Below are positions 4,766 to 20,892 of a DNA stretch of 27,028 nt, piece after piece. The DNA is taken from IMG/VR virus record IMGVR_UViG_2579778989_000013; one strand, given 5' to 3'. The translations under genes were made by a program, and so were the position numbers. Numbering within the stretch: position 1 is the first letter of the stretch; every line of letters starts with the position of its first letter. Below the pieces are notes generated by a model. That model had not been told where the DNA came from. It worked only from the letters and a program-made list of their open reading frames with translations, and searched no databases. Source of the stretch: a virus. Taxonomy: Duplodnaviria > Heunggongvirae > Uroviricota > Caudoviricetes.

Positions 4766-4794
4766 GCCCGCGTCTCCCAGCGCGGGCTTTTTTG
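4766..4794 (+). terminator. intrinsic terminator hairpin, plus-strand orientation, in the Q-nanS intergenic region
   Basis: gcccgcg-tctcccag-cgcgggc followed by ttttttg; a second hairpin agcccctc-cgga-gaggggct lies at 4805-4824. Confidence 0.4.
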
Positions 4795-5055
4795 TCCATA
4801 AGAAAGCCCCTCCGGAGAGGGGCTGGAGAGTGGCGCTATGTGCCATTGCATGGTGCCGGGTGCCTCCCGGTGAGTTCAGCCCGGTGCCACTAAACCCGCG
4901 TCATTCTCGTTTTGATAATCAGAGATTATACCGTCACCAGTCGCCCCTCCGCTCAGGGGGATTCACCATGCAGTTTTTTTCTAACAAATTCTCATCCGGG
5001 CAGACAACATTCAACTGACTTAATTGTGAGGTATGTAACATTCCTGTTGAACGGA

Positions 5056-7951: not shown

Positions 7952-8112
7952 AATGACCTCGCGTTTCGATAATTTTTACCTCGCCACCGTCAGGTGCTAA
8001 TCATCGTGGTGGCGAACTGTGCGGGGTTAGCACTACCGGTCGAAACATCCGGCGAGCCTTTCGGCTCCCCCACACAGCCCGCCATAAATCGCGAATGTGA
8101 CTGTGCTTAGCG

Positions 8113-8136
8113 CATAAAAAAACCGCCAGCGCGGTT
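8113..8136 (-). terminator. intrinsic terminator on the minus strand
   Basis: Minus-strand hairpin aaccgc-gcug-gcgguu followed by uuuuuuuaug. Confidence 0.5.
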
Positions 8137-8293
8137 ATGCACCGTTTCGATATCCGGGGTGCTAATCCCGACGCCAGGTTTTGCTGGCGCGTGAGGAATA
8201 TAGCCCCGAACACGCGACGTTGTCAAACTGATGGCATTGCAGATCCCTACGCAATGTAACACTATGTGTTATACATTAATAACGGAACAAAAA

Positions 8294-9916: not shown

Positions 9917-10072
9917 TTACTCCTCAGGTTCGTAAGCTGTGAAGACAGCAACCTCCGTCTGACCGGTTCGGATTCGTACCTCGCAGAGGTCTTTCCTCGT
10001 TACCAGTGCCGTCACTACGACGGTAATACAGATGACGATCAGGGCGACTAACATCGCCTTTTGCTGCTTCAT
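9917..10072 (-). CDS. hok: Hok/Gef-family type I toxin (51 aa)
   Basis: Translation MKQQKAMLVALIVICITVVVTALVTRKDLCEVRIRTGQTEVAVFTAYEPEE closely matches the HokD/RelF sequence as I recall it. An in-frame upstream ATG at 10129 gives a Mok-like leader (track ORF 9917..10129). Fold-back hairpins lie in the leader at about 10190-10230. Confidence 0.85.
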   Translation of the reverse strand: MKQQKAMLVALIVICITVVVTALVTRKDLCEVRIRTGQTEVAVFTAYEPEE

Positions 10073-10317
10073 AGCCTGCTTCTCCTTGCCTTTCGGCGCG
10101 TAAGAGGCTAACCTACATGTGTCTAGCATGAAATTGGCCTCAGATTAATGTTAGGCGTCTTGCAGGACGCGTAATGTTAACTGGGGCTTTTCTCTGTCTG
10201 CCTTACGGTGGCATGCCCGAGGCAGACAGCCTCAAGCACCCGCAGCAATTCTACTTAACTCTCGCTTTACCGCAAACCGTTTTTACCCGATATGGGAATT
10301 CCCATATCGTAATGAAT

Positions 10318-18544: not shown

Positions 18545-18928
18545 ATGACACGCAGAACTCAGTTCAAAGGCAATTCACGTTCTCGTCGTCGTGAGCGTTT
18601 AAAGGCAAAGGCATTAGCTAACTGCGTACTGGCCCGCGAAGAAGCAATAAGTTCAGAAGTATTACACCGCCCTACTCTAAGCAGAGCGCAGATTCAGGCT
18701 AAAGGTACTCACGAAACGCCTGAGCGCATAGAAGACGCTAAGCCAATTAAGTTCATGGCACAGGACGTGATCTGGCAACAGAAAGAATACAGACGCAATC
18801 TGGAGCGAGCAGCCATTGTGTACGCGAATGAGTTTGGACATAAGCAACCAGAAACTGGTGTATGTCTTCCAAACGTAGCCATTTACGCGGCAGGCTACCG
18901 GAAATCAAAACAACTGACGGCGAGGTGA
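18545..18928 (+). CDS. N: N-like transcription antitermination protein (H-19B/933W-type), 127 aa
   Basis: Track ORF with RBS AGGAGG; N-terminal arginine-rich motif TRRTQFKGNSRSRRRERLKAKALA; first gene after the nutL candidate. Confidence 0.8.
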   Translation: MTRRTQFKGNSRSRRRERLKAKALANCVLAREEAISSEVLHRPTLSRAQIQAKGTHETPERIEDAKPIKFMAQDVIWQQKEYRRNLERAAIVYANEFGHKQPETGVCLPNVAIYAAGYRKSKQLTAR

Positions 18929-20036: not shown

Positions 20037-20214
20037 CAGCGTCGAGTTTTTCATCAAAAAATGATTCAAATGCATCGTAAAATACGGCAATAGCACCGCC
20101 CTTATCTACCGCGGCAGGAACTGCCTTTTGAGGTATATCTTTCTCCCTGAATTGTGTGTTGTAGGTATCGACAGCCAGCCGCATCAGAAACATCACTTTT
20201 TCTTCTTGTGTCAT
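20005..20214 (-). CDS. hypothetical small acidic protein (69 aa) encoded antisense within the pL operon
   Basis: Track ORF with strong RBS AAGGAGAG 7 nt before the ATG; its 3' end overlaps the convergent 19677-20036 gene by 32 bp. Confidence 0.45.
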   Translation of the reverse strand: MTQEEKVMFLMRLAVDTYNTQFREKDIPQKAVPAAVDKGGAIAVFYDAFESFFDEKLDAVSDFGTSSNK

Positions 20215-20453
20215 AAATTCACTCTCCTTACGGGGTTTGTAGTTGAGGAGTTCTCCACGGGTGAGGTGGAGATCGTGCGCCGGACACGGGTAAGTTCCGG
20301 CACTCTCAGTTTACTGAACAGACATTACCCTGAAAGCCAGGGTACAACACGAAAGTGCACGGCGAAGACTCTTTCCCATTGAAGGCTTGTCGTTAGATTT
20401 CTTCGACCGTGCGCTTCCGGTTGTGAATAACAACATTGCTGTGTGTAGCCCTT

Positions 20454-20497
20454 GGCGGACATCGGTTTGCCGATTGCTGATGTCCGCCCTTTTTAAA
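20454..20497 (+). terminator. intrinsic terminator in a 430-bp non-coding stretch of the pL operon; candidate 3' end of a DicF-like processed sRNA
   Basis: ggcggacatc-ggtttgccgattgct-gatgtccgcc followed by ctttttaaa; no convincing ORF between 20215 and 20650. Confidence 0.5.
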
Positions 20498-20670
20498 GTG
20501 AATTTTGTGATGCGGTGAATGCGGCTATGCGCACGCGGAACAGTTAAACCGACAGGATGTCACGGAAAGTCATCGTCCCCTGACCCGGCGTTAGTTGTTA
20601 ACTGGTTAACGTCACCTGGAGGTACCAGGCACCGCATCAACAAAGTTCATTTGTGAAAATGGAGATAATT

Positions 20671-20892
20671 ATGATTGTTCATCACTTCGGAACTGATGAA
20701 ATACCACGTCAGTGCGTGACGCCTGGCGATTATGTTCTTCATGAAGGTCGGACATATATCGCTTCAGCAAACAATATTGAAAAGAGAAAACTCTATATTC
20801 GTAACTTCACAACAAAAACATGCATTACCGACTGCATGATTAAAGTTTTCATCGGGCGCGATGGCTTACCCGTAAAAGCAGCGTCGTTGTGA
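20671..20892 (+). CDS. Kil-like small protein (73 aa), possible KilR-type cell-division inhibitor
   Basis: RBS GGAGA; translation [45 protein letters not shown]...; length and position (before the recombination genes) match Rac KilR as recalled. Internal start in track ORF 20653..20892. Confidence 0.5.

Follow-up and report, generated by a model that had tools for sequence, protein, structure and literature searches.

The 27,028-nt phage sequence IMGVR_UViG_2579778989_000013 (Caudoviricetes; the whole stretch is referred to here as the window) contains a gap of about 430 bp (20215-20650) between an opposite-strand gene and a gene for a Kil division inhibitor. On the plus strand, positions 20403-20494 of this gap very probably encode the orthologue of a small RNA (sRNA), KilS, which depends on Hfq and comes from the kilR 5' untranslated region (UTR) of the Rac prophage; the assignment rests on sequence and synteny. 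The initial annotation had proposed a new sRNA resembling DicF at this place. An sRNA gene is indeed very probable, but the sRNA is a known one in a new copy, in which the hairpin top has been replaced and which belongs to a phage that appears intact. With a confidence that stops a little short of even, we also propose that KilS-type RNAs, including the window copy, are prophage-borne mimics of the RprA seed that would give a lysogen an Rcs-independent input to csgD, yncL, and other targets, and that they occupy a cassette shared with dicF.

The body of the sRNA showed about 82% identity over 97-103 nt to MG1655 1418394-1418496, which RefSeq lists as the non-coding RNA kilS (b4833, "small RNA KilS"), located in Rac directly upstream of kilR and beside the opposite-strand gene sieB. 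The window copy has the same synteny, lying directly upstream of kil and adjoining an opposite-strand gene. A covariance model (R1) was built from 15 distinct KilS-class sequences (K-12, IMG/VR prophages, and one other species), leaving out the window and its near-identical copies. R1 matched window 20403-20494 along the entire model (positions 1-97 of 97), with 73 bits and E = 1.8e-16; no other credible match was obtained within the window, and Qin dicF was not matched. R1 is mainly a sequence profile, because RNAalifold, applied to the KilS alignment, put the terminator stem in the wrong register. Besides the slot, the window copy and K-12 KilS share the seed CAUUGCUGUGUGUAG, the terminator base, the T-run, and the downstream leader; the Rho-independent terminator is intact, and the 3' flank and leader are as at Qin dicF. 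The two copies differ in the terminator (stem of 13 bp with a 9-nt loop in the window; stem longer but imperfect, and loop U-rich, in K-12), in the first six 5' nucleotides and the 5' hairpin, and around the seed (AACAAC in the window and AACGAC in K-12; UAGCCCUU in the window and UAGUCCU in K-12). The extended -10 element of K-12 is not kept in the window copy, and the latter is found in an apparently intact lambdoid phage, whereas KilS belongs to a cryptic prophage. The 5' hairpin of the window RNA is weakly supported, because K-12 forms another one (GGAG/CUCC).

For K-12, the prediction of KilS came from Hfq RIL-seq data and was confirmed by northern blot, with a stable transcript of about 100 nt present in the wild type and absent in an hfq deletion; KilS builds up in stationary phase, published transcription start site data fit a promoter of its own, and yncL is a RIL-seq target (PMC8175672, Bar et al. 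2021). Among the 5426 complete E. coli genomes, a KilS-class element is present in about 2000, and only that of MG1655 is annotated.

The terminator is predicted to form both the 3' end of the sRNA and a barrier in the pL operon before kil, which follows about 180 nt downstream. Its stem arms, GGCGGACAUCGGU (20454-20466) and GCUGAUGUCCGCC (20476-20488), are followed by C, T5 at 20490-20494, and then AAAG. The hairpin folded with -25.7 kcal/mol (z = -3.35), and an equally good fold was seen in 1 of 200 shuffles. The hairpin and T-tract described earlier are thus real and stronger than reported, with a stem of 13 bp and not 10 bp. A promoter/terminator consensus scan missed this hairpin because its loop limit was 8 nt and the loop measures 9 nt.

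The stretch occupies the dicF slot. From the 3' half of the hairpin onward, it was nearly identical in MG1655 Qin to the dicF 3' end plus the dicF-dicB spacer, the run beginning with CCGCCCTTTTTAAAGTGAATTTTGTGATG; the 3' flank and leader showed about 85% identity to that spacer. The proposed likeness to the DicF 3' end was borne out, since TTGGCGG...CCGCCCTTTTTAAAGTGAATTTTGTGATG equals Qin dicF plus its 3' flank base for base, and so was the dicF-equivalent position, with the same terminator base and 3' flank. It had also been anticipated that the body, and hence the pairing region, would differ from DicF, and the body in fact matches kilS and not dicF. DicF, KilS, and further classes have the stem base GGCGG/CCGCC and the T-run in common; in the stem top and loop they differ, with changes that compensate one another. 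DicF pairs with ftsZ through its 3' part and with xylR and pykA through its 5' part.

A genuine DicF-family sRNA, inhibiting division through base pairing to ftsZ mRNA, is a very improbable identity for the element. The homologous early-left locus before a division inhibitor, the stem base GGCGG/CCGCCC, the T-run, and the 3' flank are those of dicF, a structured leader with a helix fitting the RNase III-made 72-nt DicF is present at both loci, and the 5' end could likewise come from RNase E. A permissive Rfam scan of window 20100-20750 (651 nt) also returned the DicF model below threshold (Table 1), with E = 2e-4. However, the alignment to this model involved essentially the stem base UUGGCGG...CCGCCC, and with 29.5 bits against a gathering score of 48 the element does not belong to the DicF family by the Rfam test; at gathering thresholds, no Rfam family was matched in 20215-20650. 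In comparison with Qin dicF, neither the DicF 5' sequence UUUCUGGUGAC nor the ftsZ-pairing loop was found in the window RNA, which has another seed and another hairpin top. The duplex with the ftsZ translation initiation region was no better than shuffled sequences (z = +0.4), and the KilS-class model does not detect Qin dicF. The earlier proposal of DicF-family membership was therefore abandoned, as was ftsZ as a predicted target, and DicF-style action on ftsZ by the window RNA is not supported.

The seed of the window RNA is nearly identical to that of RprA, an Rcs-controlled sRNA of the core genome. Window 20435-20448 is an exact 14-nt match to RprA nt 60-73, and the similarity spans 20423-20454 and RprA nt 47-79; K-12 KilS agrees with RprA at 25 of 26 positions, and the local-alignment scores against RprA had z values of 10-12 (5000 shuffles). 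In both RNAs, the block GUGAA-AACAAC-AUUGCUGUGUGUAG is located 5-6 nt before a Rho-independent terminator. Within the 15 KilS-class copies, GCUGUGUG-AGU was invariant and the terminator top variable. RNase E cleaves at the motif RN↓WUU, and AC↓AUU at 20433-20437 fits this motif at the same place as the cut giving RprA60-105. The RprA nt 60-73 block is the anti-site Ib against csgD mRNA, proven by compensatory mutation in csgD CAGC (-90..-87); it also belongs to the region that pairs with ydaM, and processed RprA60-105 starts with it (PMC3465796, Mika et al. 2012). The window block is identical to this validated region. In contrast to RprA, the window RNA lacks the RprA 5' hairpin, anti-csgD site II (nt 28-45), and the rpoS arrangement UCCCC...AACGAAUU; it carries its own terminator, is encoded in a prophage rather than between ydiK and ydiL, and reached the Rfam RprA model below threshold, with only model positions of about 47-108 aligning meaningfully. 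Conversely, the KilS-class model applied to MG1655 rprA (L125 405-476) gave 22.4 bits (E of about 1e-3 in 57 kb) over the 3' two-thirds of rprA. This weak match raises the question of shared ancestry versus convergence of the RprA 3' module and the prophage seeds.

Because the seed CAUUGCUGUGUGUAG equals RprA anti-site Ib, RprA targets are its expected partners, chiefly the csgD 5' UTR at -97..-83, along with yncL. Window 20434-20448 can form 15 contiguous pairs with csgD mRNA at -97..-83, including CAGC (-90..-87). Binding energies to the csgD leader were computed over the ensemble, with intramolecular structure allowed, and compared with seed-shuffled controls. The window sRNA gave -21.2 kcal/mol (controls -8.4 +/- 3.1) and RprA -24.0 kcal/mol (controls -9.5 +/- 2.6), whereas DicF, at -4.6 kcal/mol, was indistinguishable from its own controls. 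RNAduplex, which leaves loops unrestricted, gave inflated energies and was informative for csgD only. By this method, the window seed was no better than shuffles on dgcM, rpoS, and ftsZ, which were dropped as predicted targets of the window copy. Mononucleotide shuffles were among the controls used in the analysis. At dgcM +3..+13, the RprA-like GUGUGUAGUC pairing is kept by K-12 KilS and lost in the window copy (AGCC). RprA pairs with the rpoS leader through AACGAAUU plus an upstream UCCCC; in the window, where AACAACAUU is found instead, the rpoS-leader duplex had z = 0.16, and the longest uninterrupted match (10 nt) is found at another place. The interactome data point to yncL as a target of KilS and RprA alike, and for RprA it is listed by both RIL-seq and TRIC-seq (bioRxiv 10.1101/2025.09.11.675593).

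Several observations weigh against the view that the window RNA is expressed and acts through an RprA-type seed. The cofold energy for yncL did not stand apart from that of shuffled controls for any sRNA, RprA included, so that the shared yncL target comes from the published interactome data only; moreover, KilS and RprA share 16-25 nt, and some KilS-yncL chimeras in RIL-seq could be mis-mapped RprA reads. The predicted ensemble leaves the seed only partly unpaired (probability 0.2-0.6 of being unpaired at 20441-20446). For its control of csgD, RprA also relies on the second site (nt 28-45; PMC3465796) that the window RNA lacks. Just 3 RIL-seq targets were reported for KilS (PMC8175672), which suggests low abundance or a minor role. 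Expression of the window copy is a prediction, and its autonomous transcription is uncertain because of the state of its promoter region. From about 20339 on, a three-way alignment showed homology to the sequence upstream of kilS (Rac) and dicF (Qin). In K-12, the mapped 5' end of KilS is preceded at a distance of 7 nt by TGTTAAATT, an extended -10; in the window this element is degraded to CGTTAGATT at 20391-20399, with a possible weak -10 element, TAGATT, at 20394-20399. As the consensus scan of the gap found no promoter, one for the sRNA can only be inferred; a promoter of its own, weaker than in K-12, is possible.

The slot was then considered across prophages. Scanning IMG/VR with an invariant 29-mer (the 3' half of the stem plus flank) yielded about 120 prophage loci with one chassis and differing bodies. 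At least three seed classes were present on this chassis, DicF, KilS/RprA-like, and a third class with AUGUUGAUUACC, in addition to singletons and hybrids. The third class, termed class C, comprises loci L044, L051, L071, L087, L092, and L114; L101 and L019 are singletons, and one further seed example reads ...CAACAACCCAUGUUGAUUACCUUUUGGCGGG.... Among the hybrids, L011 combines a DicF seed with a KilS-type hairpin and L103 a KilS seed with another hairpin. DicF seeds preceded dicB at 69 loci, kil at 3, and other genes at 3; for KilS/RprA-like seeds the counts were 0, 21, and 6, and for third-class seeds 4, 1, and 1, respectively. Seeds and downstream genes are mostly linked, and swaps occur (DicF seed with kil, KilS seed with other genes). 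The dicF/kilS slot may accordingly be pictured as a cassette in which a fixed terminator base, an RNase III leader, and a division-inhibitor gene are combined with interchangeable seeds, a proposal that we hold jointly with RprA-seed mimicry and as tentatively.

A pattern scan with one genome per species gave 120 matches, of which about 105 were chance occurrences in unrelated phyla; 15 passed a terminator filter. In this way, a second class of elements was recognized in Citrobacter, Serratia, Trabulsiella, Superficieibacter, and others, with an RprA-like seed and a GGCGG...CCGCCCUUUUU terminator base (L141 and L167 from Citrobacter, L143 and L251 from Serratia, and L180, L199, L213, L214, L223, L234, and L165). 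Their layout consists of unrelated upstream sequence, (A)UUGCUGUGUGUAGUCUUGGCGG, a 60-70-nt hairpin with CUUCAACC...GAAGAUAAUGUUC, and then CCGCCCUUUUU. Conservation starts exactly at the seed, which argues for selection on the seed and not on the terminator alone. These loci belong to unrelated prophages, where they occupy the early-left region near cI-like repressors and an opposite-strand open reading frame (ORF) and upstream of phrog_204/phrog_210 genes; the elements matched no Rfam family. In the literature searched, whose coverage was partial, we found no description of the seed shared by KilS and RprA, of the positional homology of KilS and DicF, or of the seed-plus-terminator module.

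In a lysogen, the RNA would arise in one of two ways, either from its own weak promoter, which has been proposed for K-12, or through cleavage of longer transcripts by RNase E, and would end at the Rho-independent terminator, which would silence the toxic kil gene as long as N is lacking. Upon induction, polymerase modified by N would read through from pL, and RNase III would then cut the 21-bp leader helix, as for the 72-nt DicF, and part the sRNA from the kil mRNA. The Hfq-bound RNA would act in trans through the single-stranded seed.

The hairpin could instead be a cis-acting, tL-like terminator of the pL operon that is overridden by N, with a body devoid of trans function and the short RNA as a by-product. 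We judge this unlikely, although it ranks above the other alternatives. In favour of it, the hairpin lies directly before a toxic kil gene in an N-antiterminated operon, the promoter of the window copy is weak or absent by consensus, and K-12 KilS has few RIL-seq partners (PMC8175672). A terminator alone, however, does not need the conserved sequence found here: conservation of the 11-14 nt just 5' of the hairpin exceeds that of its top, these nucleotides being invariant in the 15 KilS-class copies, and the same block recurs in Citrobacter, Serratia, Trabulsiella, and others, there between unrelated upstream sequence and unrelated hairpins. This block equals a validated RprA pairing site, and KilS is Hfq-dependent and forms Hfq-bound chimeras (PMC8175672).

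Downstream of the sRNA, the structured kil leader begins with a closing helix, 3 nt past the T-run, that encloses hairpins at 20521-20536, 20585-20613, and 20615-20629 together with a variable insert. RNAalifold on 31 distinct homologues gave 44 leader pairs, 4 of them with compensatory double changes, and the window leader alone adopted the same fold (minimum free energy -62 kcal/mol, z = -4.5). By BLAST against the 5426 complete E. coli genomes, the right part (20484-20651) was present in 4614 and the whole stretch in 82. The leader stands before different genes: dicB, kil, and a gene encoding MLNVAIENQ.... DicF has 3' ends made by RNase III and by the terminator, and the 72-nt RNase III form extends 19 nt beyond the terminated 53-nt form (PMC5069750). 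A cut at this distance falls inside the leader helix, which on this analysis is probably the RNase III site of read-through transcripts. The leader matched no Rfam family of its own. It resembles STnc100 (RF02076) in that 20491-20685 aligned to the whole model, with a closing helix GGUG.../...CACC and the CCNGGAGGCACCNGG hairpin; in contrast to a true member, it scored below the gathering threshold, and the resemblance concerns the leader and not the sRNA.

The least probable explanation, to which we give hardly any weight, is that the stretch encodes small proteins, for example from a 43-aa ORF (20387-20518) or a 45-aa ORF (20519-20656). Both ORFs exist, and the latter and its homologues begin with MRL(S/C)ARGTVK (MRLSARGTVK in the window), so that the first 10 codons are conserved. 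These codons, however, overlap the conserved RNA helix and hairpin; beyond them, the ORF continues to lengths of 11 to 50 aa with unrelated C-termini among the 31 homologous leaders, and indels in the variable insert shift the frame. No Shine-Dalgarno sequence is present, and the 43-aa ORF starts with TTG and passes through the terminator. The earlier statement that these roughly 430 bp hold no convincing ORF is in agreement with these observations.

Three sRNAs that have been treated separately are now linked, KilS being the positional homologue of DicF and the bearer of the RprA seed. Provided that the seed acts like that of RprA, temperate phages could modify the biofilm and envelope-stress circuitry of the host, the means being a phage-controlled copy of a host sRNA targeting sequence; the input to csgD would touch curli and biofilm formation. 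If the cassette proposal is true, the locus would show how recombination swaps sRNA seeds while the scaffold for processing and termination stays constant. A KilS-type annotation fills a gap left blank in RefSeq and phage records.

Table 1 Features in and around the sRNA gap of the window, with sub-threshold Rfam matches
Feature	Position	Strand	Remarks
N gene	18545-18928		Pfam N_peptide, 57 bits
Opposite-strand gene, 69 aa	20005-20214	-	AAGGAG Shine-Dalgarno 9 nt before ATG; full-length phrog_2605 match, E = 1.5e-45
Divergent intergenic region	20215-20402		5' flank of the minus-strand gene (presumed promoter, 5' UTR) and sRNA upstream region
KilS-type sRNA (very probable), about 90 nt	20403-20494	+	5' end by alignment to the K-12 KilS 5' end; 3' end at terminator T5
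Small 5' hairpin	20405-20422	+	GACCG/CGGUU around UGCGCUUC; minimum free energy fold of a 95-nt RNA
Single-stranded seed region	20423-20453	+	20435-20448 AUUGCUGUGUGUAG = RprA nt 60-73
Rho-independent terminator (predicted)	20454-20494	+	13-bp stem, 9-nt loop, C, T5
Structured kil leader, about 155 nt	20497-20651	+	21-bp closing helix, 20497-20517 with 20630-20651
kil, 73 aa	20671-20892	+	ATG 20671; GGAG Shine-Dalgarno 20661-20664
Rfam DicF (RF00039), sub-threshold	20440-20489		29.5 bits (gathering 48); E = 2e-4 in the 651-nt search
Rfam RprA (RF00034), sub-threshold	20387-20498		29.7 bits (gathering 70)
Rfam STnc100 (RF02076), sub-threshold	20491-20685		29.3 bits (gathering 47)

The window belongs to the lambdoid prophages of E. 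coli. Used as a query, the 456 bp at 20215-20670 showed 99.6% identity to phage PhiR5_2, and 20400-20505 showed 100% identity to a prophage of E. coli O104:H4. On the window plus strand, the annotated order of PhiR5_2 is cro (minus), cI, N, two hypothetical genes, Kil, a hypothetical gene, exonuclease VIII, Gam, and Bet. With N 5' of the gap and recE/gam/bet 3' of kil, the locus is placed in a lambdoid early-left operon. Because of the N match and the PhiR5_2 annotation, 20215-20650 is assigned to a rightward pL-type operon. Its earlier placement in the middle of the pL operon stands as regards the operon type; the left edge, however, abuts an opposite-strand gene, and the stretch is not simply internal. 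The gap comprises three parts: the upstream region of the opposite-strand gene, the KilS-type sRNA, and the structured kil leader. In the RefSeq and phage records examined, these 456 bp carry no annotation.

Kil is an inhibitor of FtsZ and cell division. The Kil-like 73-aa ORF described after the stretch was confirmed as such: its product showed 89% identity to K-12 KilR over the full length and a phrog_294 "Kil" match (2e-35), and the gene is labelled Kil in both the PhiR5_2 and the O104:H4 records. At the other border of the non-coding stretch, the opposite-strand gene is the coding sequence WP_000189936.1 in the O104:H4 RefSeq record and is absent from the PhiR5_2 record; its position is that of sieB beside kilS in Rac. 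An opposite-strand ORF was also seen just upstream of the Serratia and L213 sRNA loci, and the place beside these sRNAs looks like a recurrent moron-like position.

Other RNA elements were matched by Rfam at gathering threshold elsewhere in the window. An STnc100 copy at 4794-5000 (minus strand, 168.7 bits) lies upstream of a 636-aa ORF. The Hfq-binding sRNA dyads of enterohaemorrhagic E. coli phages are located between the late promoter and the lysis genes (PMC7873438), and the position of this STnc100 copy may correspond to theirs. As identities for the 20403-20494 RNA, the AgvB, AsxR, and EcOnc dyads were rejected because of that late-promoter-to-lysis location. The C4 antisense RNA, isrK, and the c4 a1b1 target were found at 8005-8203 (minus strand), forming a P1/P7-type immunity module, and a sok antitoxin RNA (hok/sok) was found at 10067-10241 (minus strand).

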